Of a stretch of 63,724 bases of DNA, positions 27,944 to 54,118 are shown one piece after another. This DNA is from Pseudovirgaria hyperparasitica (taxonomy: Eukaryota), in assembly GCA_010093815.1 (NCBI GenBank), contig ML996565.1; one strand, written 5' to 3'. The first letter of the stretch is position 1. Each line of letters begins with the position of its first letter. Made by a program: the position numbers and the translations under genes. The notes beneath the pieces are model-generated. The model searched no databases. It was not told the origin of the DNA and worked only from the letters and a program-made list of their open reading frames with translations.

Positions 27944-30249
27944 ATATACGTGTACCGGCTACTAAGTTTTCTTATATAACTATAGATACAAGGATACGGT
28001 TTAGCATGGTTTAAACTAGCGACCTTTAACTAAAATTAGCATCCGCTACACGCTAGTTAGTATTAACTATCGCGCGGTAAGCTAATATCTAATACCTTAG
28101 GGGTATAGTATATACGTTAACTTAAGTACCGCGGGCTATTATCGAGTTAAAAGTCCATTTCTAGATGCCTAGTTAATAGAGCCTATAGACAGACGCTAAG
28201 GAATCTCCCTAGAATAGCTTAAGCGCTATATTTTACATAGAATCTAAAAACTAAGTCTATGCGGATCTACCAAGACGAAGAAAATAGTAAATAGTTAATA
28301 TTTATACTATAAATAAGACACGCTAAGATAAATGTATATCTACTCTAGATCCTATAACAAAGGAGTAGTAGCCTACGATTAATTATCTCTAAGTATACTT
28401 ACTACTCGAGGAGTATTTAGATTATAGCTTCCAAACCCTATTAATATTTATTCTCCTAAGGAGCAAAGCTTAAGAGTAAGGAATTATATATAGTTAACTA
28501 CGCTCGAGGTAGTAGGTATTTATAAGAGCTAGAGAGAGAACATCGATAATCACCGTACTTATATTATAAGTAGCGAGATATCCGTTTATTAGCGTAGTTT
28601 AGATTCTAGAGCTAATTAACGGTAGTAATACTAAGTTACCCGTACCGTATCTAAACCTACTTAAGCTAGCTAGCGAGAGAAATAATAGGAGGGGGCAACT
28701 ACTAGACGTCTACATGTTACGTTAGACTTGTTAGTAGAGAGTAAGTATATCCACGCCCCCCTTACATTATACGAATAGTATAGAGGTGGTAGTAACCGGC
28801 GGATAGAGACTCTAGGGAGCTAGGTTAGAATTTTAACGCCATCTACTTTACTAACGGCATTGTTAACCATGTCTAACACGTATAAGTCTTAGGGCATTTT
28901 CAAATTCCTATACCGAAGGTAGCCGGTACTACGTCCTAGAAGGTCTCGAATATTAAGAAATATAAAGGATTCTAACCCATAAGAAAATTCTCGAGTAAAC
29001 CTATCCCTTGGCCGTACTAGAGCATTATTTAGTTATTTATATCTACTATTATCTAAAGTCTTATACCGCCGCATATCGAGGTTGAACCTTATAAGATACT
29101 ATGTTTAACCATGGTATAGATATAATAGCTTGTATACTTTAGTTAAGCGACTACATCTATTTCCCGTTTATACTCCTTATGAAAAGTAGAGCTCTATTAG
29201 CGGCCTAAGGATCCTAAATAAAGTATATAAACTTCCAACTAATCGCCATTATAAAAGATATTTATCTAGTAGTATAGGCTATCTAGAGTCGATTTACCGC
29301 CTTAATATGATTCTCGATTAATAACCCATTACGGACCTCGAGGTATACTAGCGATTATAGGAAAATAAAGGTCGTAGATAGCCCCCTAATCTTACCATAC
29401 TATATCTTTATAACTATACTTAGAACCTTTGTAATATATTATTATAATCTTAGCGTATATAGTAGTACTCTCTTCCTAGAAGTAAGGGTATAGTTCTATA
29501 ACGCCATGTATAACGTTTTACTATAGCGCCGGCCTATCTATATATTAGCTAGAATATTCGATAGGATTTCCGTTTAGGCTTACGCTACTATTTTTTAATC
29601 TACTAACAATTAGGAGCCGTTCTTTCGATATACAAAAGAACGTTACACGGGCCTAGGTAGTAACCATATACAACTCTTAGTAGAAAAACTAGATAGTCGA
29701 AAGATACCATAAGGTAGAGTCGAAAGGCAGCCCTTCCCATGCCTATATCCGAATAATTTTTATATATTAAGAAATCGCATGGTTAAAAGTTATATCTAGC
29801 TAACTTATAATTATTATTTTCACGGAGGGGGTAGCGAAGAATATACATGAAAACTACGTATTTTTCGTGATTTTTACTTTAATTTTCCTAACCGTGCGCG
29901 ATCGGTACCTAGATATACTATACACCGACCTACGTATACGTCTAAGGACCTTAGTAATCCTTATAGAATCGCGTACTCTAAGATACCTCTAGAATCGCCG
30001 ATTCTAATCTATTCTACTACTTACGAACTTTATAAGCTATAGCACCCCCCTTAGTACCGCTTCCTAATATAGATAGTATACGTTAAGTATAGGATATTAT
30101 ATTTAAACTTTTCTCTATCGGCGGGAGCGATAGAGCTTAAGCCGCCTTCTTCCGACCGTTATCGTTTCCTAGCCCGCTACTATTTATCGTACGATTACTA
30201 GAGGTAGCGGCTCGTTAGCTAAACGAGTAATAGATTCTAGCCTATTTAT

Positions 30250-31400
30250 ACGTTACTAATATAAATAATAACTCGCCTAATAACGATAAAGAAGACGATT
30301 TCGTTCCTAATACATGCCTACCGCCTCCGATATCTCCTCTACCCTCTTAATAATCTTATATAACTTCTAGTACCACGGTAGCTCTTCGTATAGTACTAGC
30401 GTAACTAGAGATAATAGCCTATAATATTAATTAAGAGCGAGAAGAGGACGACGAAGAAGAGCGTTAGTCTATATATCCCCCTAGAAAGCGGCGCCGTAAC
30501 GATGTATCTAACTAGAATAAATAGTTAACTACGAGAACTCTACTAACAACTATAAGAGTAAGTAATAAAATCCGGGCTAAGTTAAGAGTAAAGTATAAGG
30601 CTATACTTAGGGAGGTTATGGAGCTATTTACTAACCCCGATAGCCCGTCGTTACGGAACGAACATAAAGTATAGCTCCGTATAAATATAAGTTATCTTCG
30701 TTAGATAGATATATTATAATACTTCCCTAAAGATATAAATATAGTTAGATAACTCCTTAATCGCGTATTAGAGATCGGTTTACCGTTAACGCTACTTTAC
30801 TTTAGATTACTACTATAAGAATAGTAAGACGGTAAGACGGTAGACATAGCGCCTTATAGCCTTAATCCCCTATAGATTATTATTAGAGATACGACGTTAA
30901 CTAGGGAACGCTTAGTATATATATTTATAGACTAGGCTAGTATACTCTACTTTAAGATCGTTAAGCTAGTATATATATCGCGTCTTATTAGGATTAGACG
31001 TCGCCTAGTACTCGCGGATATATATAAAGCTATAAACGCTACTAAGGAGGCACTGAAAATAGACCGCATATTCACCCTTAGTACTAGGTAAGGCATCTAG
31101 TTAATTATAAAGGCTCGTCTATATATCTATATTAATTAACTTATAGGAGATTATACGCCAAGTCTAGAATAACCGTAGAACCTAGATATTAATATATATA
31201 CATAGTAAGGGGAGGCCTTTAAGCGGATAAGATAGTGGAAATAAATAAATAATTAGTTAAGTTATAGCGCGTACTAGGCGTTAATCCGTAAGAGGTTTGG
31301 CGACGGGTTATTTATTCTACTACCACCTGAAATTACGGACTCTTTCTTCTAGAAGATAAGGGTTAGTATACTAGAGGACTTCCTAGGCCTTATAGACTAA
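30250..31400 (+). pseudogene. RIP-degenerate gene of unknown function
   Basis: Coding-like frame with an acidic patch and an NLS-like EREEDDEEER..PPRKRRR (~30440-30500), plus a probable intron ~31088-31147. Ends are approximate. Confidence 0.4.
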
Positions 31401-31859
31401 TATTATCCATGGCTTAGACGACTTTATTATGGTGTTAAGCTATATTTATATTAGATTTTAAATGGAGACATTATGCTACCTAGGTAGTTCCTAATTAAGA
31501 GAATAACCTCGGAAAATATTACGAATATAGCGCTAGAGTAGTTTATAAATCTAATTAACCTATAAGACTATAGCCTAGGGCTAAGTACGCCATAGGACAT
31601 GCGTACTATAGATAATAATAAGGTAGATTAGAGAATGAAATATACTAATTTAGTAGCGACTATACTAATAGTAGAACACCTTAGCTAAAGATCGGGGCTA
31701 GTAGTAGCTATTAATTTTCTACGGTACGGCCGTTAAAAACTAAAGGACCTAAAAACTCCTTACTCTAGAGCCGTCTAGAATCGCCGTTTCTACACCTATC
31801 TATAGGAATATAATTATATATATTATAGTCTACTCCCGACGCTAACCTACTAATACTAT

Positions 31860-34800
31860 ATAAATATATATAGATATCCGTAGATTTACTACTAGTCGTC
31901 GACCTTAATACCGGAGTAATTATCTATTAAGATTATAAGCGCGCTATTCTTCTATCCGCGCTAGACCGCCACCTCCTTTAAGAATACTAAGGAATAAGAC
32001 TAAAGTATTATAAGATTATTAAAAGCTATATTTACTTACTTAGTTATACCGCTACTATAATCGACGACCTTTAAATACCCGCTACCCTATCACGGCCTAT
32101 AAGGTATATTCCGGTTAAGAGAGGGTTCTAATATATTATTAAGAACTACGGATTAGTTCTTAGCCTTTTAAAGAATCTTAAATCATATATTAAAAATAAA
32201 TATATGGCGTTCTTTAATGGGCGTAGGGGGGCTCTACCTAGAGCGGACGATAAGACACGTGGATATAGAGATAATATACTATACTAATGCCTATAGAATA
32301 TAGGCCGGTTAAACCGCCTTATCCCGATTATAACACGTACTACTATATATACTCGTATACTAATTAATACTATACTCGATTAGCTCTAGTTAAATTAGTA
32401 GAACGTCCTTAGAGATAAAGATCGTATAGTATAAACCGGCGCTATTAACGAAGTTAATCCATAGCTAGAACGTATAAAATTTATTAACTACTTCTAAGGC
32501 ATGGATATCCTCGCACTTACTAATATTCTAGAGATACCTACTAAAGGGCCGCTAAAGATAGTATCGTCTAGTCTAAGAGTTCTATTCTACTAAGCCTATA
32601 AGATAGTAGGTACTTATGATAGACTACTATGCCTAGAAGTAGCGCGTTCTATAATAGAGCCCGGGCTATAGCGACCTCTCGCACGTTATCGGAACTAGAA
32701 AATATTCCGTGATTACTCGAAGCATCTTTAGCGTCTTATTATTAGGGCTATCTAAGCGTACTAGAATCCCTACTACCTCCCGGCTTTAGTCTTTAACGCT
32801 AAGACTAAGGCGTGTATTACTCGGCTTCTAGACTATATTACTACGGAATAGCTATCCGGCGAGAGTAATAGTAGCTCCGACTCTAAACCCGAGATAAGCG
32901 TGACTAACGACTATCGTAGAGTAGAAGGTAATCTTAGCGAGTAGGATCTAGAAACACGTCGGGCAAAACTATACGAGGTATTTAGTATCTAAACCCGCCC
33001 TCTTTCTCGCATCGCCTACCTTTATATATAGCTTATTATTATATTACTATAATAGACGCTATATATATACTTATTCGAGGCCGTACTAGTCCTATTATCT
33101 AGTCTACTATATATAGATTAAAACGGGGGCTTCCTTTTACCATAGAACTATACGTCTACTCTATTAGTACTTATTAAGTTCTCCCGCCTTATTATCCTTA
33201 AGTAGGCCATCTAGAAAGTCTTCTATAAGTAAGCGGGTAGTACTATAGATGTTCTCGGATATCTCTTACCATTTATTAACTAGTATCTCCTCCGTAGTAG
33301 TCGTAGTATAGTTAGATAGTAGATATAACTTAGAGCTTACGGTCTTAAAATCGTAGGTAACATAGCTATAGACGTAAAGATATAGTGGGTTAATAATATA
33401 CTTACGTATAATGTATATACAATTCTAATAAATACATTTAGAGGGATAGTCTCTAGCTTAATAAATCGAATAGCGCGAATATTATATACTAATATTCTTC
33501 TACTATCTTCTATAGAGGGAGTACTAGTAATCCTATAGTAGTTACTTATAGATAATACGGCTAATAACATAATCGGGTATAGCTTCCTTTAGTTAGCGTG
33601 CCTCTAGAAGTAGTTCTTATAGTTTAGAAGGCGAGTTAAAAAGGACTAGAATATATAGTTAGCGTTCTTTACTAGAGGAGAGTTAGATATATAAAAAGCA
33701 TAAGACTAGCTCGAATAGATTCGAGTCTTTCTTAGTTAGCCACTTATCCTTATCTATATAATAGCTAGATAGCCTACACGTGGACTAGAAATCCTAAGTA
33801 TACGGTACTATAATACGCGATAGGGTAATATACGTAATATTATTCTTTATAGTAATAAGCTTTATATTATAATAAAGTACTATAAAGGGTATATACGTAA
33901 AGGAGATATCCGCCTAATTCTTCGATATCTACCGCTAGTTATATATAATATTCTAATATAGTATCTTTAGTTAGTCATCCCGTGGAAGAAACAACTCGAG
34001 AGATTCATGGATCTAATATAGATAGTCGTCCCTATATATATATGGCTATTGCCGTACTAGACTAGCGAGTATATAAGCCATGCAATAAGAGAATAGATAT
34101 ATCTTAGTATAGAAGTAGTTAACGTAGGTATCGTAGACTATTATTAAGTTGCGATTATAATTATAAAGCGTAAGCTTTAGAAGTACGAGATTAACTATAT
34201 AGACGAGGCCGATAAGAATAGTCTATAGAATAAGGACTAGAATCCGGGTACCCGAGATAATAGTCTAACCGCTATCCTTAATAAGTAAGCTAGTTATAGT
34301 ATAAAGATTATCTAGATCGCGTATAGTCGTAATATAAGTAGCCCGTTTAGTATGGTAAAGACGGTAATAGAGAGGTACTTCTAGGTTAGTCGCGTATAGT
34401 AGTACGAGATTAGGGTGCCTATATTTAATAAGATTACGCCTAGCTAGACGTGAATTTTATAAGTACGGGCTTACCGCTAGGCTATACTCTAGAAGAAGGA
34501 CCCGTATAAGGCTATTAAGGTTATACTCCGTAACGAAAACGCTAGAATATAACTCTAATAAGAAAAGGTATTTACCGGGCTAGTCGAAGACTATAGTCTA
34601 ATACTAGTTATATAGCCGACTATCTTAGATAAAAGTCTACCTTTTATATTAGCTACGTTAATAGTACTAGATAGAGTAATACTAGTTATTATCCCGCTAA
34701 AGGCCCTTCGAGATAACCTTATCTACCGTTATTATAATAGTAGTATTACTATAGAAGTATTTAACCCTACGCACCCCCCTTACGGAACGTCTATTATTAT

Positions 34801-37110
34801 TATTATACCCGAGTCTATAAAAGGCGAACCGTTTATATAGTTTATAAACTATATAAATAGCCTAGGTGTTAGGCACGTGCCTACTAGTTAATTATACATG
34901 TATATAGTAGTCGTATATAAGTAGTGTGCTCCACCCTTAAAGTAGTAGCTTTAAGATTCGGTCCTTTTGGTATAGTTGGTTGGTGCGTGGAGCCCGCCTC
35001 CTTATATAATCTTAAAGCTACTACGGGGTCACGGGTTCAACTCTCGGTCTAGTTAACCGTTATTGAATTTCGCACGATTCCGTTTAGCTTACCACGTTAC
35101 GTGTACTTTATGCATGTAACGGATAACATGGTAGTAACGTTACTACGGTAAGTTAGCGTGTCTAGTACTAGAGACGGCATTATAAGTATTGGTTATGTGT
35201 ACACATCGTTTATACTAGGCCCGTTACGGCTAGTTTAGTTCATCTTTTATAAGGTAGCATGCCCACGACGCGTAAGGACACGCGCCTTCGAAAAGGGGAG
35301 ATATTATTAGGCACGTGCCTGCTAGTTAATTATACATGTATATAGTAGTCGTATATAAGTAGTGTACTCCACCCTTGAAGTAGTAGCTTCAAGATTCGGT
35401 CCTTTTAGTATAGTTGGTTAGTACGTGGAGCCCGCCTCCTTATACTAGGACTACTCGACCGTGTAATTATTAATAAGTACTACTATATTATTAATAACGA
35501 CTAGTTCCGGCCGGCCTTTCGCGATATCTAAATAATAGTCGACCTAGAGGTATAGATTATACTTCTAAGTATAACCCTACTACCCGATAATAAAGTAGGG
35601 CTATAGAAAGCTATACGTATAAACGCTAGAGATGTATTTATCTACCGCGAAGCTATAACTCGGCCTAATATTACGTATATACTTAGGAGCCTATCTAAGA
35701 AGGCTCGAGGTACCTATAGTTAAGCGGAATACGTACGATGTGTTAGATAGGGTATTACCGGTAGATATCTCGTCTTTACGCCTATAGTTATATAAGCTAT
35801 TAGCCTCGTAGGGGAGCTTGGTTACGATATATACTATTAAGAGAGTATAGCTAAGGAGTAGGTCCTTAACGGATTTATCGCCGAAGAAGAAGGTATTATA
35901 GTTACTATAAACGCTCTTAGCCTAGGTATTAACCTAGCTACCATTCGCGTCGTGATACACTTAGGCGCTCCTTCTTTATTCCTAGACTATATATAAGAAA
36001 GCGGCTAGGCCGGTCGCGACCATCTAACGAGAAGCCTCGCTATCTTCGTAAAGATAGGAGAAGCTACTACTAAGGACGCGATAATACTTACTTATATAAA
36101 CTAGATAGGGTGTCGTAGGGTGTTCCTAGACGAGTATCTTAATAGGTCGTTTAGTAGAAAGAGCTGTAATAGGGTTAAAGAGAAGTGCGATATATACGAT
36201 CCTACCCTATTAATATTCCTACTATATTTAGAGACCCTCTAGGAGGATCTAGAATTGGCGATTCTAGACCTTTCTAGTAGCTCGCCCGTGGGTTCCTTAA
36301 ATAGTTAACCTAACCTACCCTAGACTAATTAACCGTCGCGCTAGCCGCCTTATATATAGAATAAGATAAAACGAGTACGTGTATATAGTAATAGTATAGG
36401 CGAGGTAGGAAGACTAGTAAAAGGGCGGGTATTAGAACTTCCTAGTGCGCGTCCGGACGAAGATTACGTAGGTAAGAATACTTATAATTAACGAATGTTT
36501 ATATAATAATAGTCCATGAAACTAGTAGTATAAGAACGTCGTCTATAAAATAGATAATATATAAGTCTCGTCTAGTTATTATCCGAGTAGAGATAATAGT
36601 AGGCTAGTTATTATAATATATATGGTACTAATAGTAGAGTCTATACTACGTACTACTTAGATAATAGACGACTTATAGACATGGTTAAGCGTGTACTAGC
36701 CGACTAAATGCGAAAGAGTAATATCATGCCTAAACACGTGTACTACTTTACCTATTACTAGCTATAAATTCTATGTCTATAGTAGGAGCCTAGACCGGAG
36801 GGATAACTAGGGTTCCGTCGGCTCCCGGGAAATATTAAGTATATATAGAAATTTAGTTTATATCGAGCTCTTAGTATAATAGTAGTCTATCTATCTAGAC
36901 GATAGGCTACCCGGTTAGAAGGGTTTAGAATTTCGAAAACGGGCTAACTACTAATAGTAATAAGAGAAGGTGCATGGGACTCTAGTAAATTAGCCCGTTA
37001 GCTATAGTGTAAGCGGCGAGAGGGGGCGTATAAAATTACGAATACTATTCTAGAATTTAATTAGAGTACTCTACTAATTATAGATGTTAGTCGATAGGGT
37101 CGGTAGAATT
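31860..37110 (+). pseudogene. DUF3505(OrsD-like)-RecQ-type helicase (telomere-linked-helicase-like), interrupted by TRIM 1
   Basis: De-RIP'd motifs: VIIC.DCKRAI..LDRHL..EH, EVNP[W]LER, RGLEILSIRY.N..RNI, KY[H]KG, [Q]A[G][H]S, VIIPLKAL, LDRVII[DECH], NAL[G]LGI[D]..IRVVIH and DYI[Q]ESG[R]AGRD (~35985-36020), plus a Cys-rich C-terminus. Confidence 0.8.
34867..35444 (+). mobile_element. TRIM (non-autonomous mini LTR element) copy 1, 578 bp
   Basis: 140-bp LTRs at 34867-35006 and 35305-35444, TSD CTAGG (34862-34866 / 35445-35449), PPT GAAAAGGGGAGA and no ORF. Confidence 0.93.
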
Positions 37111-37669
37111 TATAGTTATTATAGTTTAAGTCTAGAAGTATATAAAGTCTATAGAGTATCTTAATGCCCATAGGTAATGTCTGTAAGTTAGTACTCTTAA
37201 TCTATATTACTCTATATTAAATAGAATATAAAGAGAGAGACGTGAAAAGGATTCTTCTAGTAATGTAGTTACGTATTTAGTATAAGAGTATAAGAACTAG
37301 AATCTACGACCTTAACTATAGGGCACCCTATAAATAGCGATTTCTAGAGTAGGGGCTGGAATTTCTAATAAAACCGATAGGTTAATTTACTTTACTTATA
37401 ACACGTTATAACGTAACGTAAGGAGGTTATATAACAACACGTAATAAGACCTAAAATATATATTTATATATATTATTTCCGTTAACTCTCTCTATCTCTT
37501 CTATATCATTTTACTATTTTCTTACGTAATCTTATTTTTTCGACATATATATATTTAACCCACCGATCGCCGTTTACAGACCCTTCTAGAGATTATAGCT
37601 CCTTTTCTTCTAGTTAATATTCAAGTATAAGAGGAAGAAGATAATGATTTTCTTAATCCGTTTTTAGAT

Positions 37670-40600
37670 ATAGCTACTAAAGAGATTCGCGAAACTAGAG
37701 TAGCGTTATAGAAGAAATATACTACCTTATCCGCTCTTATCGTAGGTAGTAGCTTAATAGACTACGATTCTAAAGCTATAGAGCGATTTCTTAAGGTCGC
37801 TACTATAGAGAAGGAAGTAGGCGAAGTAGAAAAAGGCGCATCTATTAAGTTAAAGCCGGGAAAAGAGGCTAGATAGGAGTATAAAAAGGAACCTAGGCTG
37901 GAAAAGAACCGTCGCCTTAGTAAGATTACCTCTAACCTTGGAATTAGCGTGGTTAAAGTAGCTATTTTATTCTAGGATTCTAAAGTTAACGCCTTACTTA
38001 ATAAATACTATATAGAGTTCTTTAACCCGCGGATTCTAGAAGGTTCGCATCCGTTTAGCTAGTTTACTTTAGCTATAGAACTTATTAAAGAAGACCGTAC
38101 CTATTACCTTATAGTAATAGCCGCTAGTCGTAGTAAATAGGAAGATTACTAGTAGTACGCGTCTCTTATTCTCTGGATAGATCTTAAGCTATCTTCTAAT
38201 TATATAAATCCTCTTTCGCGAATATATATATTAGAGAATAATAAATATCTTGTATTTAATAATATACTTAAATACCGACGCCATGCCCGTAACCAAGGGT
38301 AAGAATACAAGGATAACTTTCGTATAAAAATTATCTATGCTAACGCGAAGTAGATGTCTATAATACCTTAGAAAGTTTCTACTAACTAGGTTCCCCCTAC
38401 TTATCTACTAATCACTCTATAGGCCCGTCTAGAATCGACGATTATAGGCCCTTCTAAGAAAAAAGCTAGAAGGCGTTTAGATTAATACTAAGCTACCGAT
38501 AGTAACTCTACTACTAACCGGAATAGAGAACTTAGTAAGAATACTAGCGATACTATAGATTAGGACCCGATGGAAGATATCTAAGCGATAGATCCAAACT
38601 CGCTCCTTAACGCACCCATGCTAGACGTACTAGCTATACTAGATACTACTATAAAAGAAGGACCTATAGCTACCCTAGTAAAACTAAAACGTTCCTTAAA
38701 GCCTATAAAGGCACTAAGAAAAAAATTACCCGAGTACTATACTAAGACGTGGACTAATATATAGAAACGCGGTCTAAATCCATTGGGAGTATTAATAGAT
38801 ATCTATAACAATCTAGAATTTATAGTCGAAGATAAGGGTATTAATATAGACGATCGGCGTATATTTACTAGATTATATCTTAAGAGTCTCCCCTCCGAAG
38901 AAGAGCTCTAGGCCACGCTTATAGTAACTTATAAGGATTATAACGTCATTAATCCGGATTATCTTAAACTAGGAACGTGTCTATACTACTCTTATCTTAC
39001 TATTAAGAATCTTATAAAGGGCTTAAGCGGTACTTAAAAGATCTCCGAGATTAAAACTAACGAGGTTATTTAAGTAAATAATAATAAGATAGTAATTACC
39101 GTACGTATTAATACGGATCTTAGTAATATAGTACTAATTATAGATTAGTTAAAGTCGGGTAGCGAGAAGAGAAGTAAACTATAGGATTAGTTAAATAACT
39201 AGAGTAATAACGGCGCCGCCTAACTATAAGACTATATTATAGCCGCGGTGGGTCTCCGAGTTACTAGTACCTAAAAACCTTAGATTCTTAATATAAATTC
39301 TAGCGTTACTCTATATTAGTAGTAACTTATAGAAGCTTAGTAGCTCCGAAAGAGTATAGATAGTTTAGTTTCACGGGGTGTAGTATTAGTAGATGGTATT
39401 GGACTAGGTAAAATATTTATACTTTTAGCGCACTAGCTGCATGTAAGTTTCTTCCCCTAGTGGCCTCTAGAATCGCCGATTCTAGACGCGCCTATATATA
39501 TCTAACTAAAATATAGTTAATTAACGAGCGTATCGCTAATCGCGAGAAGGGTATCCTAGTATCTCCTCCGAAGCCTACCCTACTATTAGTATCTATAAAT
39601 CTTCTTATCTAAACCGCCGAGTAGATTACGGACTTTTCCTTACTCTTCTATATTATTACTAGTTACGGCGATAGTAGGGTCGGGAAATCAGCTACTAGTA
39701 CTATATATTTAGTAGGTATCTTAATATAGAAGAGTTAGTACTTTAGACCGGAGAAGATTAATACCCGTACTATTATCTTAATATTCTATGTAACGTTTAA
39801 CGCCTATTATAGCCTTACTAGATAGAGGGAGAAAATACGAGGGTACGCGGAGTTCTAGAATATTAAATCTAGAAATTAGGACGCTATTATATTAGTAGAA
39901 ACGAAATATATAGAGAAGTAGCATTTTCTATATAATGCCCCTTAGAACCTTACTTAGTACTTTAACTATACGGTAGCTAACGAAGTACACGGCTTCCGGA
40001 ATATTAACTCTATGACTAACCGGTCCATCTACGAGCTTAATATTAAATACTATGTTCTTATAACTAGTACTCCCGTCTATAACTTCGCTAGTAATATATA
40101 GGGTCTTCTTAAAGTTATATAATAGAGCGCATCCCTCGACGATTATTTTAACGGTATTTCCGGTATATAGCCGCCATTTAAGGCGAAGTCTAACCTATAT
40201 AAGTTGCTATTAATGATAGTAAGACTATATCCGGACGTTTTATAGGAAAAACTAGATCGCGTCCTAGGTATATATCTAACTTCTCCGGCCTTTAAGTACT
40301 AGTACCTAGGTTCCGGCCGTAATAATTCTAAGCCGCTATTAGAGCTAGTATAAGGCTAGTACTTAAGTATAATATACGGAGTATTTATACTTCGCTATAT
40401 AAACGACTTACGGTATAGCGATAATAATACTACTTTAATCCGTAACTATATTCCGCGGGCCGAAAGGGTATAGATTAAAGTAGCGTATCTACTAGAGGTA
40501 TAGGCTAAGTATAATAAGATTAGTAAGGAGACCTAAAAGAAGCTTATTTAGCCGAATCCTTACCGACCCTTAGAATTAAGTCTAAACTCCCGTATATAGT

Positions 40601-42772: not shown

Positions 42773-45700
42773 ATGGTAGGCGATTAGAGCCTTCTAACTA
42801 AGCTAAGTAAAGGAAAATGGAAGGCGGTATAATTAGCTCCGCCACCCGTAGAAGATACTAGACCTTTAGAACCGGCTAAAACTTCTAGATCTATACGCTA
42901 TACCTAATAGATACTTTAAGACCTAAATAATCTAGTAGGGAATGATTGTTTCTATTAATCTTATAAAAAACTAATACCGTTACGTATGAATAGCGTAAAG
43001 TTCATGGTTAGTAATATTATATAGATACTAGAGAAGGACGTCTATTTGGTAAACGCTACGTAGAGGTAATTAGATACTAAGCGTTTTAGTAGTATTAACG
43101 TAGTTATCCGTAAAGGAGCCGGTCTAGAACTCGTGGCCGCCCTTACGGATTATAAGATTTTAGAATCCGAGGAAATTCTAGTAATGGAGCCATATAATCT
43201 TAATGTAAAAATTATTATATACGTGGCTATACTAATATATATAAAGACGAAGTTAGATATAAAAAAACGTCGTAACGTTCTAAGAGATTTATATAAAAGC
43301 ATCGTTAAAACTACGGTTAATTATTAGAACCTAGATATTAGTAGCGTCGCTCGGATTCTTTATTCTATTCTTAGAATATCGAAGTATAGATAGGCTATAG
43401 ACGCTAGAGCCTATTCTACCCTTCTCGGTATACGAATGGCTTTCAAGGACTCTAATAATAATAAAATACTATTTAATATCTTACTCGTCGTGCCATTAGC
43501 GGAGGATATACTTAATATTATACCTATTATCTAGTGGGTTTCCAATTCTACGAATTACTATTATCTACTAATATTCTTTAGTATTATATTCCCGTCGATT
43601 AAAACGCGCGCCATTAAGTTTCTAGGTATATTAAATCCCGGCTTTAGTAATCCTTAGGATTAGCGATTCCAATACCCGCGCATTTATTATTATATATACT
43701 CTATAGTCTTTCCCTATAACCGTCTAGGATCGACGATTCTAGACCTCTCTTAAGATATACATGTTCCCTATAACCGTCTATAATTAACGATTCTAGGCCC
43801 TTCTTAAGATATATATATTCTATACTAACCGTCTACCGTAGAACTACCTATCTAATATATACCGATAACACCTCGTGTATATATAGCTCGCGCCGCTAGT
43901 ATTAAGTTAGCTCTATCTTAGGAAGTTTATACTAACCGTATACGTTTCGTTAAGAATATAATTAGGGATAACGTTATATATAGTCGAGCCGTAGTAGCCC
44001 GTTCTCTAATAACTAATAAACTATCCCCCGCGAAGAAGAAGAAGAAGGGTTCTAAGACTAAAAATACCGCCGATTCTATTATAAGTAAGACTAGTAAAAC
44101 GTCTAAGACCGCACTACTACTTAAGAATAGTATAGTAGTAAAAGAGCCGACTATAGAAACGCTATACCCTACTACGGAACTATCTTTGGTAAAGGAACCC
44201 GAAGATAATACTAATAATTTAGATTCTATATCTCCATCTATAGATAGCGAACTTTCTAATAATCTAGACTCTAAACCTAATACCTCTAACTTACTACTAC
44301 CCCGAATACCGTTAAAATCCAAAGCCCGGAAAGTAGTTAGAACGCTATTAAAAAGATTAAAGGTAAACTAAACTAACACCGTAAAGCCGACTAGTACTAC
44401 TCTAGTTATAGCCGTAGCTATAAAAAAGGCTAAAGCGCTAAAGCGTAAAAAAACGATAGTAACTTTATAATCTCTAACGACCTAAAGCTTCCTAGTAGGT
44501 GTCTACGACCTTAGATAATAGCTTTCTTTATTAATCGACTAGTAATAGGTAAACCTATTATCTACCGCTTAGTTAGATACTACTACGTTACGTAGTTCTA
44601 GTTAGCTATAGCGGAGAGAATTTCGCGTCTTAAGAATTAAGGCAAGCTCTATACTAGATTTACTTTTATTGTGAAGATTATATATATACTAGGTGGCGCT
44701 AGAGCGGGCGGCTATGGACCTAATACCTACATCGATCTATACTTCTATAGCTCTAAGGAATACTACCATTTAATTCTACTCTATAAGCGGCTTAAGAGAC
44801 TTACGTAGAGCCCTAAAATTCTCGTAGAGGGTCTTCGTCTTCGGCTCGCCTAGCCTATATATAAAGAATCTAGATTCGAGACTCCTACTAATTATTAGGA
44901 GCGATAACTCGCCGTACTTCGCCAACTTAGGGAGTTGCTTAGTCGTCTAATTTTCTATGATTATTAGTCTAATATTAGCTTTATATATTAGCTTGCTATA
45001 TAGTAAGTTTGGGATAAGCTAAAGTATAACGATCCTAATCTTAACCCGTCTAAGGAAGTTAATAAGAGTAATAAAGAGAATTTATTACGTTATATAAAGC
45101 CGCTAGCCGATACTACTAAAAAGTCTTCTATAGCCGAAGTAACTATAAGGAAGAAGCGTATAGCGTCGTATAGCGATTTAAGTAAGGCCGTTAAGCGCGT
45201 TAAACTTAGTAACGAGATACTAGAGAAGGCACTAGAATCGGCGATTATAGACGCCTCTAAGGTTTTAGATGATATGCCCGATAATACTATACGGATAAAC
45301 CCCCTAGACCCCCTCGTAGACTCTAGTACTATTTCTAAGAAACGTATGGAATCGTCGATTCTAGGACCTTCTACGGACCTTAACCCTCCTCCTATTTTTC
45401 CTTTAATTACGCTAACTATACCGACTATTACTACCACGTTATTATATATATCTCTTAAGGGTACCGATACTATCGTATCGGATAGTAAGGGTAATTCTAG
45501 GTCGCGGATCTTAGATCTATCTAAATAGCCAACGATCGATATATAGCCTAGCATGCCTAATAGTAGCATTATTATTAACTAAGACCGGCCACTTACTACC
45601 TAGGTATAGTATCTCGCTAATTATGGCCCTTTTAAGGATAAGCACGTAGTTTAAGAACTTTACTATAATATAGCGTTCTCTAGATCTAACCTAGATTTCC

Positions 45701-45852
45701 TACCGCCCTTATTAGTAGATTCGACCGACCCTAATAATATTAATATAGACTTAAGTAGTTAAAGGGTTAGGTTTTTCTTAAGTATAGACATGCGTATAAG
45801 ATTTAAGTAGTTATTAGTAAATTATAATCTAGTACTAGGGTAGGTCTATAAC
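42773..45852 (+). pseudogene. Large RIP-degenerate gene of unknown function, 3' end split by element C (continues ~53693-53750)
   Basis: Long coding-like frames (ORF-track fragments 43133, 44186, 45274) and Lys-rich NLS-like SPAKKKKKGSK. No domain recognised. Confidence 0.4.
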
Positions 45853-46080
45853 TATTAGAACTTAGTCTTAGATAGAACCTAACCTACACGTTCCTTAGCT
45901 AATAGGGTTAGAAGGTAACGTAAAGGGCGGTAAACAGTCACGTGCTAGATAGATCGGCGTCCCTTTATATATATACTCTTAGATTCCTACTAAAAGGGTT
46001 CGGTAGTAATTCGTTCTATAATAGAATATACCCTATTATTCTATCTAACTATACTACTATCTAATAACCCTATTCTTATA
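45853..46080 (+). repeat. 5' LTR of element C
   Basis: Direct repeat of 53460-53687. Confidence 0.95.
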
Positions 46081-46273
46081 TTCGAATTACTCCCTATATA
46101 GTACTATAGTTAAGATAGTCTAACTAGAACCGAGAAGGTCGACACGATCTACTATAGGGATAAGTAATACTATATTAAATAATAGAGATTCTCTATAATT
46201 AGCATTAATCCCGGCCATTTCTAACCGAGAAGTAGAAATATTAGACCGAATCGCGGAGCTTTTAGACGAAGAA

Positions 46274-49200
46274 ATGGTAGATACGCCGAGTAACTTCTAA
46301 TAACATAAAGCCGGATAACGAGTCGTAGCGGAGCCACGTGAGGTATTATAATAAACCATCGCCGAACTTTAGGAATACGTCGCGAATTAGGCTTAATAGA
46401 TTTAAACCCTTAAAGAATAGATAGAACGCGCGAAACTCCTCGCAAAGAGACGAGAACTTAAGGAGTCTCTTAAAGAACTACGCCGAACGATAGTAGGTAG
46501 ACGACTTCCTATACTAATTTAGGCGGAATTAGTTTACCTACTATTAGAGTTATGATAATCTACTATATACCCGGCCGCTTCGTTACCGATTTACCCTACT
46601 CCTTCCCTAGATATACTAAAACCTAAAGACCCGACTATATTTATAGAGAAGAACTAAAAGGAGTAGAAAGACTAGAAGAGAGACTACGAAAAGTACTTCC
46701 TCGATAACCCTCTACTCTTTTCTACTAAAGTATAATATATTTCGTTCGGAGAACGATACCTAGGCTTATAATCCCGCGATTAATAGGATAGATAGAAGGA
46801 AGTACAGCCACTATCTACGACAACCTAGAAATATTTAGCTATATTTATACTAAATACCCTCGGAACGGATGGAGAACGTGAAAGAAAGGCACTATCTAAG
46901 TTAAGAAGCGTAGCATAACGACCGAACTAGACACCTACTTAACTACTATAATACCTCTAAAACCTATAGAATAATATCCCTACGCTATAGAAAAATATTC
47001 GTATATTCTAGTTTCGCGAAGTACTACTTCCGTTAATCCGCGAAAGACTAGAAATAGTATTATTAAGTTTTAACTATCTATATAAATTAGAGGAGAAAGC
47101 TAATAAATACTACCGCATCCTTAAGGAACGCGGCTCTCTAGGTAAAACCGACGAACCCTATACGGGTTAGAAACGAGGTCAATCGAATACGTTCGATTAA
47201 GAGTAACCTTACCACAATTAGCGCTAGAAGAGCGTAAATCGGGGTAGAAACGCGTTAAGAGGATACTAAAATAATTAAGGCGGTACTTCTTAACACGGAA
47301 AAGGATAAGATATAGGCTTAAATATAACGCCTATCGTAAAATAGTAGGATTATAGCGTACTTTGTTACTATAAGTATAGAGAAATAGGATATATTTCGCC
47401 TAACTATAAGAATCCGAAAAAAGAATAGGCTAGTACACGAGATCTAACCGCGTTCTTAGCTAAATTATATATACTTAGAAGGAGCCGTAGCGCCTTCCGG
47501 CGAGTAAAGACCTAATATTACTAAAAGTATCGTTACCTATAGTAAATAGTAATAAAACTATATAGGCCCTCGTGGATACTAGTATAGAAGATAACTATAT
47601 TTCGTCGATTCTTATAAAGGAGTATAGATTATCGTACGATCTTAGTAAAGTTAGCTAAACTATCGTAGTTAGTAGATATAAAGTTAGAACTTTAGGTAAA
47701 GCTATAACGAATTACGAAGTTCATAACTCGAAGATAATAAAATAGTAGATGTCTAATAAATTTATCGTGGCTAATATTAGCTAATAGAATATAATTCTAG
47801 GGATACCTTAGCTTAGACGCCTAAACTCTATCCTTGATTTTTAGAAGGAGACATTAACGTTCTAACGATACCGTAGTAAATTATACTAGTAAGTCGTAAC
47901 TATTAGTAAGGAGGCATGGAACCTTACCATGCGGACCCGATTATCGCTACCCTATCTTATATTCTTATTGATCGTTAATAAAGATAAGGACGATAGTAAT
48001 AATTAGGGCGAAGACACGCTACCCGACGTATATTCGTAGTATATAGATATATTTTTAGTAGGAGATACGTTACTTCTCCCTAATCACGGGCTATATAAGC
48101 TAAAGACTAAGCTTAAAGAGGGAGTAGACGTCCCTTATAGTCTACTTTATCTACTTTTAAGACTAGAACTTGAAGTTCTTCGTAAATATATTAAAGAATA
48201 CCTTAAAAGAGGCTAGATACGTCGTAGTACGTTATTGGCCGGCGCATCTATTCTCTTCGTAAAGAAGAAAGACGGAAGTTTACGTCTATACGTCGACTAT
48301 TAGGTACTAAATACGGTAACTAAGAAGAATCGTCACCTATTACCGCTAGTTAGTAAATCTTTAGACTAATTAATAAAGGTAAAGTACTTTATAAAGCTAG
48401 ATTTACGAGATATATATTACCGGCTTTAAATTCGTTGCGGAGATAAGTAGAAAACCGCATTTCGGACTAGATATAGTCATTTTAAGTATACTATTATACT
48501 ATTCGGGCTAATAAATACGCTAGGAGCGTTCTAAGGATATATTAATACTATACTCGTAGGATTACTTAACGTGATTTACGTAGTTTATCTCGATAATATA
48601 CTAATTTACTCCGATAGTATGTAGAATTATAAAGAATACGTGAAATTAGTACTAAATCGTCTAAGGTAGTATAAACTCTACGTAAAATTATCTAAATATA
48701 AGTTTCACTAATAAGAAGTTAGGTTTCTCGGCTTTATTATAATATATGGCGGCCTAAAAATAGAGCCGGAGCGTATAAAGACCATTATAGAATGGCTAGA
48801 ACCTACTACTATACGTTAAATTAGAACATTTATAGGTTTTGTAAACTATTATCGTAAATTCATTATAGGCTTCTTACGAATTACGGCGCCGCTTAATAAA
48901 CTCATAGAGAATAGCGGTAAAATCTCTATAGGTAGGTAAGCATAGCGTAAAGCTAAGTCGGTCGAGATATAGTTAACGCTGGAAGCGCGAGATACGTTTC
49001 AATCATTAAAGAATTACTTTATAACTACGCCGATTCTTAGGTATTTCGATCCTAAGAAGTATATTTAGGTTAAAACTAACGCGTTAGAATTCGTAATTAC
49101 TAGAATCATTAGTTAACCGTATAAAGATGCGAAAGATAAGGTGTAATAGTACCCGGTCGCTTTCTTTTCCTATAAAATGGCGGATATAGAGACGCGTTAT

Positions 49201-51790
49201 AACACGCACGACTAGAAACTACTTATAATTATTAAGAGTTTTAAGTAATAGCGATATTATTTAGAAGGCTCTATATATTAGATCGAATTATTATTAGATT
49301 ACGTAAATCTATATTACTTTATATCGACCAAGGTCCTTAATCGCCGATAAGTACGTTAGGCTAAGTAGATATTAATATTTAACTTTAAAATCTTATATAA
49401 AGCTAGAAGAGAGAATAAAGCTAATCCTCTATCGCGGCGTAAAGATTATAAGAAATCGTTATAGAATGACGTAGATAGTTAGTATAAGTTAGACTATACT
49501 ATACTTTAGATACTATAAGACTAGTTATCTAATAGAATACTAGAAGCTAGGACACTTTCGGCGATTCTCCGCGGGAATTAGAGCGGGTATTAAGTAATCT
49601 AAATAAACGTCTAAGAAACTAAGAAAACCCTCAAAGACTTAATTAAATCTACCTAGAATTCCGATATATTAGTAAAGAAAGTTATAAGTATAAAAGGAAG
49701 CGCTATAGATCCGCCGTGGTTATTAAGGTAGAAACGATAATCCAACGCGATTGTTAGGCACATGCCTACTAGTTAATTATATATATATATAGTAGTCGTA
49801 TATAAGTAGTGTACTCTACCCTTGAAGTAGTAGCTTTAAGATTCGGTCCTTTAGGTATAGTTGGTTAGTGCGTAGAGCCCGCCTCCTTATATAATCTTAA
49901 AGCTACTATAGGGTCACGGGTTTAACTCTCGGTCTAGTTAACCGTTATTAAATTTCGTACGATTCCGTTTAGCTTACCACGTTACGTATACTTTATATAC
50001 GTGATAGATAACATGGTAGTAACGTTATTACGGTAAGTTAGCGTGTCTAGTACTAGAGGCGGCATTACAAGTATTAGTTATGTGTGTACATCGTTTATAC
50101 TAGGCCTATTACGGCTAGTTTAGTTCATCTTTCGTAAGGTAGTATACCCACGACGCGTAAGGACACGCGCCTTTAAAAAGGGGAGATATTATTAGGTACG
50201 TGCCTACTAGTTAATTATACATGTATGTAGTAGTTATATATAAGTAGTGTACTCCACCCTTAAAGTAGTAGCTTTAAGATTCGGTCCTTTTAGTATAGTT
50301 GGTTAGTGCGTGGAGCCCGCCTCCTTATAGTAATCTACTTCTAAGACCGACTCTACGTGCCGGAAGGCGGCTTATAAATTAATATTTTAAGGGAATAGTA
50401 CGATTACGCGTTAGTAGGGCACTTTAGCGTTATAAGGACGGTCGATTTAATCCGAAGGACGTACGACTAGCCGGGTCTTTATAAATATATAAAAGACTAC
50501 GTAAAAACGTGTAACGTTTGCTAGTATACGAAAGTATATAGATACTTACTATATGGCGAATTAAGGCCATTACCTATGCTAAAGGAGGCATGGAAGGAAT
50601 TATTAATGGATTTTATTATAGATCTGCCCCTAAGTAAGTATTCTAGGTATATTTATAATAGTTTACTTATAGTTCTAGATAGATTTATAAAGATATTATA
50701 CTACATCCCTATAAGGAAGATAATCTAAGCACCGGATCTTATAGATATACTACTCCGTGATATAGTCCGGCTCTATAGTATACCGAACGGTATAGTTTTG
50801 GATAGAGGTCCGTAGATAACGTCTAAATTTTAGAAGAATTTCTACTATACGCTAGGAATTAAGCGGAAACTTAGTACTACGTTCCATCTATAAATAGATA
50901 GATAGACGGAGCGGTAGAATTAGATAGTCGAGGCGTATTTACGTGTATATTATAACTATAAGTAGAATAACTAGATAAGGTTAGTCTATATCGTGGAATT
51001 TGCGTATAATAATAGCCGATATATATTAACCCACGTAAGTCTATTCGAAGTAAACTTCGGTCGGAACCATAATATATAGTTCTTAGGGACCTAGTTTAAA
51101 GTAGAACGACCCAACGTTAAAGTAATAGAAATTACTATAGAACTATTCTAAACGTAAAGAAGCATTATAAAGTTACTATAAGATACTACGAATTATAGTA
51201 AATCGCACTATAACAAGGGTAGAAAACCTATAATCTTTAATATTAGGGATAAAGTTTTACTAAATAGTAAGAATATTTATAGTATTAGGCTAAAGAAGAA
51301 GCTTAACTATATAATAATAGATCTATATAAGATTACTCGTGTAATTAATGACTAGGTGTACGAGTTATAACTCCCTCCTACGTTAAAGATATATAATATA
51401 TTCTATATTACGCTTCTCGAGCCATTTTATACCTTATTATTACTAGATTATTCTAAATAGATACTATATAAAGTAGTTATATAAGAAGGTATAGATATCT
51501 ACGAAGTTAAGTAGATACTTAGCTAGTAACATACCGAAGATAGCACGTAGCTATATAAAATTCGTTAGAAAGGATATAATTCTAATAAAGATACTTAGGA
51601 ATCTATAATAAACATTAGTAAAGTAGCGATATTAGTATATAAGTAGCGATTAGCAAAGGAAGCCGCGGAATCATAGAGAATTATACTAAAGTACAGCAAT
51701 TCAACGTTTTTTAGTATAGTTCGGCGCCAAGGACGGCCGCCTAAAAGGAAGAAGGTAAAAGAGATATAGATCTTTAAAACATTCTAAGGA
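46274..51790 (+). pseudogene. gag-pol of element C (interrupted by TRIM 2)
   Basis: CCHC remnant ~47365-47410, protease ALVDT[S/G], RT, RNase H, integrase and chromodomain. Ends are approximate. Confidence 0.85.
49752..50329 (+). mobile_element. TRIM copy 2, 578 bp, inserted in pol of element C
   Basis: Same length as copy 1, differing almost only by transitions. TSD GCGAT/GTAAT differs by two RIP-type transitions. Confidence 0.93.
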
Positions 51791-51834
51791 ATTAAGGAAC
51801 TTCCTTAGAAAGTTCGAACTTAGAACTTTAAAAA

Positions 51835-51929
51835 NNNNNNNNNNNNNNNNNNNNNNNNNNNNNNNNNNNNNNNNNNNNNNNNNNNNNNNNNNNNNNNNNN
51901 NNNNNNNNNNNNNNNNNNNNNNNNNNNNN
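51835..51929. other. Assembly gap (95 N)
   Basis: N run. Confidence 1.
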
Positions 51930-52019
51930 CGAAAAACTAAAAACGCTAGATAAAAGAGATATATTAGTACTAATTAGTATAGATCTAAACCGATTAAGTC
52001 GGAGTAGAAGTAGAAGTAC

Positions 52020-52888
52020 TAATTACCGCGATAGTTATATCTAATTCCTTCCGCTAGTTCTTATTTAGTATAGTATAGAGCTTTATAATATAAGTCTCTA
52101 GCCTTTCGTTCCGACGCTATAAATTCTATATAGCGCGCCTTATAGCTATAAACTCCTCTATAGAAACCTATAGAGCGGTAGGACCCGGGACGGAGAGGGA
52201 CGGACCGGCGTAGGCACGCTAAGAATTATATAAATTAGCGAAAAGATTTAATAATCGGTATAGAACTATATACCTTTAGTATAGAAACTTCTAGATTAGA
52301 GCTATCTTCCCTAAATTTATAGCTCTTTAACACGCGCGAGGAAGGAACCTTAGCCTTTTTACTAGAACCTTTTCTAGAAATTTTAATATCACTAGTATAT
52401 AGAAAGAAGTCCGAAGTAGTAGAGATTTTAGTACTATTATAGAGATTAATATATATTAGTAAGAATCTATAACGATTTAAGAAAAACGATATTATCTAGT
52501 AATTATAGTAATAATAGCTATAGTAGATTCTAATAAATTCTTATAGATCTTATTAGAATCGTACTCCTAGACGTAACCCTTACCTTAGGTATATAGCTCG
52601 TAGAAAGCCTTCTCTAAGGCGTTACGATCGGTAGTACCACGCTCCTTATTAGTAGAGGTTACTAGAGGCCTAGTAGTAATCTATACTAATATAAGTAAAT
52701 CTACGTAAAGTTCTTCGAACTTACTTAAATATCTATAAGTAATAACGCTTCTTAGTTATATAAGTACCGTATATTATAGATTTAGTACCGCCGTAAGTAA
52801 TATACGACGGAAAGTAATAACTATAATAATATATAGCTAGATTATTAGAGCCCGGCCTAGGTCGGGGTAGATCGATAGCTTTTGACAT
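52020..52888 (-). pseudogene. Putative antisense accessory gene of element C
   Basis: ATG at 52888 (MSKAIDLPRPRPG..) is followed by a Tyr-rich stretch compatible with RIP'd Cys codons, then a GTAAGT donor. The end is approximate. Confidence 0.4.
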
Positions 52889-53459
52889 GTCGGTAATGTA
52901 TACGAGATAGGGATTATTCGAAGGCGCCTATTTCCACGCTAATTACTTTAGAGCGTTAAGATTTCGGGAAACTATATTATAATTATTATTAATTTATACG
53001 GACCATTATAAATTATATTATTACTAGCTAAGGACGGTATAAAAATTAGTAAATTACGTAAATCGTACTAAATTATAGTAAATCTATATAAATCTATATC
53101 TATAAGGATCGGGTAATATATCTAATAATCTAAAAAACTCTATAAAGAGTTAAGAAGTTTTTTAAAGAAAGGAATATTTCTAAGAAAAGATTTTAATATA
53201 GGTAGCACCCGGGCTTACCTAATTATATCACGTGATATACTAGGCCTAATTAGGTAATCTCACCTATATAAGAAGTTAAGATGGATAAAATCTAGTTTAT
53301 TAGGAAAATACTTATATAAATCTTAGATCGGTAAATATTAGTAAGTATCTAAGACAAAGCGTAGAGAACGACTAAGGTCTTATAAGACTTAGAATAGGGA
53401 TATAGGGATAGGTAACGATCTAGGTTACTAAGGGCAGCTTCCTAGAGGGAAGGGATAAT

Positions 53460-53687
53460 TATTAGGACTTAGCCTTAGGTAGGACCCGACCTATATATAC
53501 CTTAGCTAATAGGGTTAGGAGGTAACGTGAAGGGCGGTAAATAGTTACGTGCTAGATAGATCGGCGTCCCTTTATATATATACTCTTGGATTCCTACCGA
53601 AAGGGTTCGGTAGTAATTCATTCTATAATAGAATACACCCTATTGTTCTATCTAACTATACTACTATCCAATAACCCTATTCTTACA
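53460..53687 (+). repeat. 3' LTR of element C
   Basis: Direct repeat of 45853-46080; ends TTACA, followed by TSD ATAAC. Confidence 0.95.
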
Positions 53688-54118
53688 ATAACTATAATAC
53701 TATAGCCGTAGACTAATAGCTAGACTATAATACTAAAAGAGTGGGTATTTAGCCGTCTTATTAATTCTTAGTTCTTTATATTTTTATACGTATCTATGAA
53801 CTTTATTACTTAATATAAATAAGTACCTAGAATCGCCGATTCTAGACGCTTCTATAACCTTTAAATACCCTAAGATTTAATATACTATAAACGCTACTCT
53901 TATAGGTCTGTACGTTAGCGTATATAGAACGGTAAACCTTCTAGATATATTATCTAGAATAGTATATAACGAACTATATAATAGTCTTAACTTTAGTAGT
54001 ATAGGGTTAAGCTATAAGCGGACCGCTTATAAGTAAGCGTTATCCGATCTATTTCTACTAGGCTTATAGGAAACTATTTCTTAATGCTAGGCTTCCCTAA
54101 CCACCTATCATAGTAATA

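Follow-up and report, generated by a model that had tools for sequence, protein, structure and literature searches.

Composite, phased palindromes in a RIP-mutated RecQ-SNF2-macro-domain repeat block of Pseudovirgaria hyperparasitica as putative protein recognition sites

Genomes of Dothideomycetes, like the regions close to the ends of fungal chromosomes, commonly contain large repeats with helicase genes, and it is of interest how such repeats are recognised, silenced or homogenised. The DNA under study is a stretch of 63,724 nucleotides (nt) from contig ML996565.1 of Pseudovirgaria hyperparasitica (assembly GCA_010093815.1), hereafter the window, in which an earlier note had described a 17-bp palindrome, TRGAATCGNCGATTCYA, scattered in at least 13 copies through a helicase/SNF2 region degraded by repeat-induced point mutation (RIP), and only there. 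What are these copies, and why are they where they are? The palindrome is a genuine feature with strong statistical support, its structure goes beyond the first description, and it lies in a dead copy of an apparently multi-copy block carrying RecQ-like, SNF2-like and macro-domain genes. Tentatively, and with a likelihood that we put a little short of even, we read the palindromes as putative recognition sites for a symmetric oligomeric DNA-binding protein.

Exact matches to TRGAATCGNCGATTCYA are found at 5 positions (29990, 39468, 41148, 45347, and 53828), compared to an expectation of 0.00 from 100 dinucleotide-preserving shuffles of the 63,724-nt window. Allowing up to 2 mismatches, the number rises to 11, while the shuffles give a mean of 0.08 and a largest value of 2. 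All 11 sites lie within 29990-53844 and coincide with 11 of the 13 originally listed starts, the other 2 (43655 and 43779) requiring 3 mismatches. Furthermore, when the copies were scored leave-one-out with a symmetrised 41-column matrix, 12 of the 13 reached 31.7-48.9 bits compared to a maximum of 15.5 in a null of 200 Markov simulations of 18 kb, and only the copy at 43655, with 4.4 bits, is marginal.

The 17-mer is the core of a composite palindrome of ~41 bp, in which four TAGA/TCTA half-sites at 10-bp spacing are arranged around ATCGNCGAT. In a stack of all 13 copies on their centre, conservation reaches about ±20 bp and then fades gradually, and the consensus reads ctcTAGAa.cgtCTAGAATCG.CGATTCTAG.CcctTCTA; the previously proposed extension of the palindrome to (GT)CTAGAATCG.CGATTCTAG(AC) is therefore real and reaches further. 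Of the 13 copies, 8 have an outer TCTA that begins exactly at +15, 10 bp from the inner TCTA at +5 (background 0.015 per position; P = 3e-12), and its mirror image, a TAGA ending at -15, is exact in 3 of the 13 and occurs as RIP-type variants in others. Because outer and inner half-sites stand in a 10-bp register, each site consists of two inverted arms with two half-sites each, one helical turn apart. The matrix scan also added two partial copies within the block in which single arms stand alone: a degenerate copy at 37550-37590 that kept its right arm (37570; 14.2 bits, with a null 95th percentile of 11.5) and a half copy at 42374-42414 that kept the left arm with both half-sites (42394; 12.3 bits).

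The copies have not decayed uniformly. When only deviations between the purine and pyrimidine classes (transversions) are counted, which RIP transitions cannot produce, the core deviates at 7 of 234 positions (3%; free centre base excluded), the outer half-sites at 14 and 15 of 78 (18-19%), each spacer at 13 of 52 (25%), and the DNA beyond the sites at 38 and 47 of 117. Divergence in the spacers comes close to that of unrelated sequence, and the half-sites were kept; this argues against neutral decay from one source, which would be even across positions.

Another idea is that the palindromes act as DNA cruciforms or hairpins, or as RNA hairpins, and thereby serve as hot spots of recombination or replication, as points of helicase loading or as signals for transcript ends, which we consider quite improbable. 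RecQ-family helicases act on hairpin and cruciform structures, a stem of 8-9 bp with a loop of 1-3 nt is possible for the core, and the fold energies, although modest (-3 to -10 kcal/mol in 49-nt DNA windows), are mostly 1-4 kcal below those of mononucleotide shuffles. However, spacer complementarity within a copy is not raised over that between copies (0.54 versus 0.59; permutation p = 0.95), so that the kept feature is a symmetric sequence and not a long stem; a stem beyond the core has not been maintained by compensatory pairing, and the core stem is invariant across copies and hence uninformative for covariation. Moreover, the outer half-sites are kept as sequence in a fixed 10-bp register that a stem does not need, the positions are not linked to gene ends (they include an intron, a domain interior and coding tails), and a search of 27900-55500 against Rfam returned 0 families. 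The original suggestion of binding sites for a dimeric protein, by comparison, is consistent with the dyad symmetry, the 10-bp phase, the conservation of half-sites and the lack of hairpin covariation.

How specific are the sites to the region in which they were first seen? They are confined to ~18.0 kb of DNA, with 0 in the other 45.6 kb of the window, a distribution for which our own arithmetic gives a chance of (18.0/63.6)^11, or ~1e-6. The earlier statement that retroelements and host genes are free of them stands at up to 2 mismatches; outside the block, only strings with 3-4 mismatches (e.g., at 27066 and 61584) and a single 21-bit matrix match at 10921, TCTA-rich and without the CG core, were found. 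This enrichment in one repeat block holds for this one 64-kb window. Furthermore, the retroelements are a weak control for site absence, because an element nested in the block (element C, 45848-53685) and the flanking long terminal repeat (LTR) copies may be younger than the sites, and the independent non-block DNA is small, consisting of host genes, which extend up to about 7 kb of the window, and the interval 27948-29632 (~8.7 kb of host or single-copy DNA together).

The region itself proved to be one unit, as the earlier note had proposed from the sites. Its left and main part, apparently multi-copy and RIP-mutated, spans 29633-45847, and the block continues from 53686 into the DNA between the end of the element C LTRs (45848-46078 and 53455-53685) and the start of the next LTR retroelement at 55467. 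Element C, a nested LTR element, contains zero sites; as had been noted, the palindromes stop before it (45233 and 45347) and resume after it (53828), and both contig depth and nesting indicate a single repeat block split by later insertions. Depth was analysed on 27948-45847 with the contigs of two runs from one sample. The interval 27948-29632 is covered by one contig with 0 differences and a depth of 342, whereas from ~29.7 kb onwards 2914 contig pieces at 80-99% likeness add up to a summed contig depth of 1700-3200, a figure that is not equivalent to copy number. Relative to the window, these pieces show 518 A>G and 560 T>C changes against 125 C>T and 123 G>A. We read this as a block present in several diverged copies, of which the window copy appears to carry extra RIP-type transitions, with a left boundary near 29633 that is placed by the stop of the single-copy contig. 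The first site (29964/29990) lies ~350 bp inside this boundary. A comparison of 29300-30400 with 53686-55466 in a purine/pyrimidine alphabet for terminal inverted repeats of the block gave one weak 34-bp match only.

Reading all frames with stops as X revealed the remains of three genes in the block. The first, on the plus strand at 35634-36188, encodes RecA-like domain 2 and the Zn-binding region of a RIP-broken RecQ-family helicase: Pfam Helicase_C matches at about 35847-36017 (E 2.3e-4), and the stretch aligns to human RECQ1 (7a8r_A, E 4.1e-6; query 28-212 to chain 213-417) over a part that starts with RecA-like domain 2 and includes the zinc-binding cysteines. Its N-terminal half is broken up by a 576-bp element, and a first word-based homologue search with the RecQ stretch gave 4669 candidates and zero at E <= 0.001. 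The second gene, SNF2-family and likewise RIP-broken (39350-42003, plus strand), has motif I (DGIGLGK) before an intron and the N- and C-lobes after it. This 74-nt intron at 39443-39516 (plus strand; GTAAGT...CTAAC...TAG) leaves the exons of motif I and motif Ia joined in frame when it is removed, and Pfam SNF2-rel_dom matches at about 39961-40125. A HMMER search with 39451-42120 against 1.84 billion representatives returned 17 proteins at E <= 0.001; SNF2-rel_dom was present in 9 of the 10 scanned SNF2 homologues, while the tenth, P0001, is without a Pfam family. The third gene is that of a RIP-broken macro-domain protein (43094-45600, plus strand). Two paralogues, P0018 and P0019, which are named as hypothetical proteins of this fungus, can be aligned with it at 68-81% identity per stretch. 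With 44500-45846 as the query, these two were recovered at 81% (P0018) and 78% identity (P0019, which has the macro domain PF01661), and a homologue search with P0019 among proteins of 260-830 residues returned P0019 and P0018 only. P0001 (157 aa, 77% identity) maps to 41077-42003. P0001, P0018 and P0019 are gene models from less mutated copies of the block.

Helicase_C and SNF2-rel_dom were the only Pfam families below the cut-offs in the read-through frames of 27-47.4 kb, and nine further candidate frames gave no Pfam match at E <= 0.1. In the same type of search, neither a transposase nor a recombinase nor a DNA-binding domain was detected in the block, a negative that RIP makes weak. The suggestions that the binding factor is encoded by the element, that SNF2 or RecQ proteins are recruited to the sites, and that these serve as helicase or recombinase loading sites find no support in these results.

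The gene models also provide a view of the palindrome before mutation. The TGGAAT variants at 42100 and 45347 and the ATTCCA variant at 43655, which had been taken to reveal the pre-RIP form, are all present. At 45347, the window reads ATGGAATCGTCGATTCTAGG, encoding MESSILG, while P0018 and P0019 both have VESPIPG; with the window's bases, VESPIPG requires GTGGAATCGCCGATTCCAGG, and since all differences are transitions in the RIP direction, this supports TGGAAT...ATTCCA as the earlier state. The less mutated paralogues thus support TGGAATCGCCGATTCCA as the probable pre-RIP form. This does not extend uniformly to all copies: at 41148, the paralogue P0001 reads LLEAPRIAD and retains R (AGA), so that this copy is TAGAAT in the paralogue too, and the right arm at 45233 was already imperfect, because P0018 has T (ACA) at the position of I (ATA) in the window. 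Since the site at 41148 is present in P0001 and those at 45233 and 45347 in P0018 and P0019, the sites predate the duplication of the block.

The contexts reported earlier, intergenic DNA, an intron and coding frames, all hold. Near the left end lie the sites at 29978-30018 (core 29990-30006; 31.7 bits), with a half copy just upstream at 29964-29980, and at 31764-31804 (core 31776-31792; 40.6 bits), and the first site past element C is that at 53816-53856 (core 53828-53844; 42.7 bits). The site at 36238-36278 (core 36250-36266; 43.8 bits) lies 21 codons past the last aligned cysteine of the RecQ Zn domain and in the same frame, while that at 38418-38458 (core 38430-38446; 45.4 bits) lies upstream of the SNF2 ATPase core. 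Within the SNF2 gene, the site at 39456-39496 (core 39468-39484; 47.1 bits) falls in the intron, of which the palindrome makes up about 41 of 74 nt, and the highest-scoring copy, at 41136-41176 (core 41148-41164; 48.9 bits), is located in frame in an extra loop of the C-lobe (~41083-41202), between the 'FN..DS' segment and the GxGFNL strand. This loop has 67-73 residues in the window compared to 20-26 in P0002, P0003, P0004, and P0013, an excess of ~47 residues; the comparison with P0005 gives a 48-residue excess over a longer interval. The TGGAAT-form site at 42088-42128 (core 42100-42116; 43.0 bits) is separated by ~100 bp from the preceding end of the P0001 match and by ~1 kb from the macro-domain match that follows, in the DNA between the SNF2 and macro-domain genes. 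Within the latter, the marginal ATTCCA-form copy at 43643-43683 (core 43655-43671; 3 mismatches) and the two composite palindromes at 43713-43807 (cores 43725-43741 and 43779-43795; 43.5 and 37.1 bits), which form a 54-bp tandem duplication with 15-26-bp direct repeats at the 54-bp offset, all fall into 43625-43918, a stretch of ~294 nt that both paralogue gene models skip. Finally, the sites at 45221-45261 (core 45233-45249; 46.7 bits; ...ALESAIID... in the predicted macro-gene tail) and, in TGGAAT form, at 45335-45375 (core 45347-45363; 37.5 bits) are translated in both P0018 and P0019, as ALESAITD or ALELAIID and as VESPIPG, respectively.

The shared peptides raise the question of whether selection acted on the protein, with a repeated short peptide (LES-x-ILD, VESPIPG-like before RIP) in linkers of block proteins and DNA palindromy as a secondary effect. 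For 9 copies the upstream frame can be deduced by homology, and 6 of them (36250, 39468, 43725, 43779, 45233, and 45347) share a register, the exceptions being 41148, 42100, and 43655; two of the six are translated in the gene models P0018 and P0019. If the chance is 1/3, however, our arithmetic puts the P of 6 of 9 at about 0.04, and at about 0.09 if the tandem pair is taken as a single case, which is a tendency only and not significant. Furthermore, 39468 is intronic, 43725 and 43779 lie in the stretch that the models skip, 41148 is read in another frame, and the gene models were predicted automatically from mutated copies, while the dyad symmetry of the nucleotides, the conserved third codon positions and the phased outer half-sites are inexplicable by peptide selection. 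Protein-level selection therefore appears very improbable. The six copies in shared register give L-E-S-x-I-L-D-like peptides (V-E-S-P-I-P-G at 45347 before RIP).

The same contexts are the best support for the main rival to a binding-site role, namely that the palindromes were left behind by a very small mobile or insertional palindrome, a foldback or a micro-MITE (miniature inverted-repeat transposable element) consisting of terminal inverted repeats only, which peppered the ancestral block before its duplication and RIP and is functionless now. Above all, the ~47 in-frame residues that the SNF2 C-lobe has in excess and the largely filled intron fit such insertions; in addition, three copies sit in the ~294-nt stretch skipped by the paralogue models, the 54-bp unit was duplicated in tandem, and the contexts vary between intron, coding and intergenic DNA. 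The absence from the retroelements is neutral in this respect, as element C, and maybe also the flanking LTR copies, inserted later. If each copy were an independent micro-insertion, it might carry its own target-site duplication (TSD), as the earlier note had pointed out, but no TSD signal above the control was found: for the 11 non-tandem copies, the best flanking direct repeats measure 5-9 bp, while 82 of 400 random centres in the same DNA have repeats of 8 bp or more, although RIP may hide short TSDs. An 8-bp direct repeat around 41148, AGGACGAC, was considered as a TSD and rejected, being within the control distribution. The copies also lack the sharp ends expected of insertions, their decay is position-specific and not even, and we know of no described MITE as small as 41 bp. 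Moreover, zero palindromes lie in the ~8.7 kb of the window that is host or single-copy DNA, two scans of viral contigs gave 0 matches for the RIP form and for the pre-RIP form, and metagenome contigs gave 40 loci, each with a single site between unrelated and mostly GC-rich flanks; a second site at up to 2 mismatches was present in 0 of these 40 loci (208,710 bases), and we read the metagenome matches as chance-level. Neither are splice signals shared among the copies, as introner-like elements would have it, with GTRNGY within 90 nt upstream on 4 of 26 strand-sides and the full GTAAGT...CTAAC...TAG setting in 1 of 13 copies, 39468(+) only. An origin as micro-insertions, which is partly compatible with a role in protein binding, is in our judgement rather unlikely. 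If it were correct, an insert of exceptionally small size would have been able to establish itself in introns and, with the frame kept, in a conserved helicase domain.

Our preferred reading, that of recognition sites for a symmetric oligomeric protein, accommodates the dyad symmetry, the four half-sites on one helix face, the combination of kept half-sites and drifted spacers, the lone arms, the occurrence at the same places in paralogues and the confinement to one block. Among these points, sequence, symmetry, phasing, block confinement and the conservation of half-sites with spacer drift are directly established. The site would be a composite, operator-like element, in which two inverted arms flank ATCG-N-CGAT and each arm has two TAGA(A) half-sites, of GGAA type before RIP, one helical turn apart; with this spacing, all four half-sites would face the same side of the DNA. 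The binder may be a dimer or a dimer of dimers, and could mark the RecQ-SNF2-macro repeat block over its full length, about once every 1.3 kb, with chromatin marking, silencing or anti-silencing, insulation or recombination control as candidate effects. The copies probably spread inside the block by local duplication or insertion, for which the 54-bp tandem pair is an example, and were then kept.

Several points weigh against this reading. Binding as such, the identity of the binder, whether host- or block-encoded, and the effect of binding are what we infer from the pattern of the sites. Neither a DNA-binding domain nor a transcription-factor-like gene was found in the block, by searches whose sensitivity is lowered by RIP. 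Sites inside predicted coding sequence and a conserved helicase domain are unusual for regulatory sites. Furthermore, a copy-and-paste step is needed in any case, because a site of 17-41 bp cannot arise repeatedly by point mutation, and this need blurs the line to insertion relics. Spacer divergence could be inflated by the ungapped stack if copies carry 1-bp indels, and the left arm of the copy at 45347 indeed has 9-bp instead of 10-bp spacing. Finally, element specificity is drawn from one 64-kb window whose non-block part is mostly retroelement, with element C nested in the block and flanking LTR copies that may also postdate the sites.

If recognition sites are nevertheless what the palindromes represent, a long, phased and repeat-specific operator would be a concrete handle on helicase-bearing repeats, and the pre-RIP 41-mer could be used directly as bait for the binding protein. 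Presence or absence of the palindromes across copies would, in addition, tell mobile elements, recombining segmental repeats and regulated gene clusters apart.

The earlier note had likened the sites to the anti-silencing VANDAL/VANC system of Arabidopsis, an analogy that is loose. As described in PMC5735166 for VANDAL21 and VANC21, a short motif is highly enriched in one repeat family and rare elsewhere, occurs throughout the element, with introns and upstream regions included, multiplies by tandem duplication (compare 43725/43779), and is proposed as the means by which a protein recognises the whole element. Within the window, these likenesses, the element-specific spread and the tandem duplication, carry over. 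Motif type, density, orientation and location do not: the VANC21 motif has 9 bp (YAGTATTAY), is non-palindromic, and forms dense one-orientation arrays that are mainly non-coding, with binding established by chromatin immunoprecipitation sequencing and electrophoretic mobility shift assays (PMC5735166), whereas the 41-bp dyads described here have four phased half-sites, occur about once per 1.3 kb, are mostly solitary, and extend into predicted coding sequence. A VANC-like gene, unlike in VANDAL21, was not detected in the block by Pfam in read-through frames. A self-recognition array as a fungal counterpart of VANC, in which a block-encoded or co-evolving factor would bind the four-half-site operators and bring the block's own remodeller, helicase or ADP-ribose reader to every copy, thereby shaping chromatin state, recombination or copy number, is a reading that we hold to be distinctly unlikely.

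For the block as a whole, repeats of Parastagonospora nodorum offer a comparison. According to the description in PMC3017866, X3X3R8 is a RIP-degraded repeat of 26 kb with Rad5/SNF2-like helicases, a Rad6-like enzyme and unknown ORFs (open reading frames), and X26 is a sub-telomeric repeat with a RecQ helicase; RecQ families are also noted in Zymoseptoria (PMC4522978) and, in a table note, in Leptosphaeria (PMC3105345). Likened by description, the present block, of ~18 kb or more, shares with this group of repeats an apparently multi-copy and RIP-mutated state, cellular-type repair or chromatin genes (RecQ-like and SNF2-like), the lack of a recognisable transposase, and the presence of some less mutated copies that still carry gene annotations. 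It differs from the group in its macro-domain gene and in the lack of telomere repeats in the window, where no TTAGGG dimer was found at up to 1 mismatch. With a RecQ fold match (E 4e-6), a several-fold higher summed depth and many diverged contig pieces, it shows one feature of telomere-linked RecQ helicase (TLH) repeats, a RecQ-family gene in a block that we read as multi-copy. The term 'palindrom' occurs 0 times in PMC3017866, PMC4522978, and PMC3105345 (supplements excluded), and an internal palindromic motif is not described in any of the passages that term searches found there; the literature searches as a whole were not aimed at a published description of the motif and leave room for one.

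Two further groups of elements invite comparison. CACTA elements (with the 12-mers bound by TnpA of En/Spm) and Ac/Ds have short subterminal motifs, partly as inverted pairs, that bind their transposases within a few hundred bp of the ends. The present sites resemble them as short repeated motifs specific to one element, with putative binding here, and differ in being distributed through about 18 kb of block DNA, where searches revealed neither terminal inverted repeats nor a transposase. Rickettsia palindromic elements and the introner-like elements of Dothideomycetes are short, structured, in-gene repeats of 100-150 bp. Similar to these, one site is part of the reading frame of a conserved domain and another occupies most of a short intron; unlike these, the palindromes are much shorter, have splice signals outside the repeated unit and, within the window, are not seen to spread beyond one block.

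Some further observations concern the block and its surroundings. In its right-hand remainder, tandem duplications of ~316 bp and ~199 bp are located at 54169-54743 and 55171-55479; the former contains two degenerate strings that resemble the core, at 54238 and 54531 (4 mismatches each), of which that at 54238 shares a TATAATTAACGATT variant with 43779. ORFs survive in the heavily RIP-mutated DNA on both strands, at 45007-45525 (+; 173 codons) and 45093-45578 (-; 159-162 codons), each spanning two palindromes. The apparently single-copy interval 27948-29632, which lies between a retroelement LTR and the block, is AT-rich (GC ~0.35) and may reflect RIP leakage or an older relic.

The 576-bp element that interrupts the RecQ-like gene is a nested, miniature LTR-type element outside the motif system, located at 34867-35444, with 138-bp terminal direct repeats, ends TG...TA and a 5-bp target duplication, CTAGG. 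A second copy is found at 49752-50329 within element C. The summed contig depth of this element is ~40,000, compared to ~340 for single-copy DNA. In two other runs with the same species label, it was the sole part of the stretch to be found, the block being next to absent, and no conclusion is drawn from this.

Runs of N at 51835-51929 (95 bases, in element C) and at 63355-63364 (10 bases, in the 3' LTR region of the second flanking retroelement) represent assembly gaps. The block is flanked by one LTR retroelement family, with copies at 8428-27947 and 55467-63582 in the same orientation and at an offset of ~47.0 kb, the first of which holds a nested LTR element of ~11.4 kb at 15544-26910.

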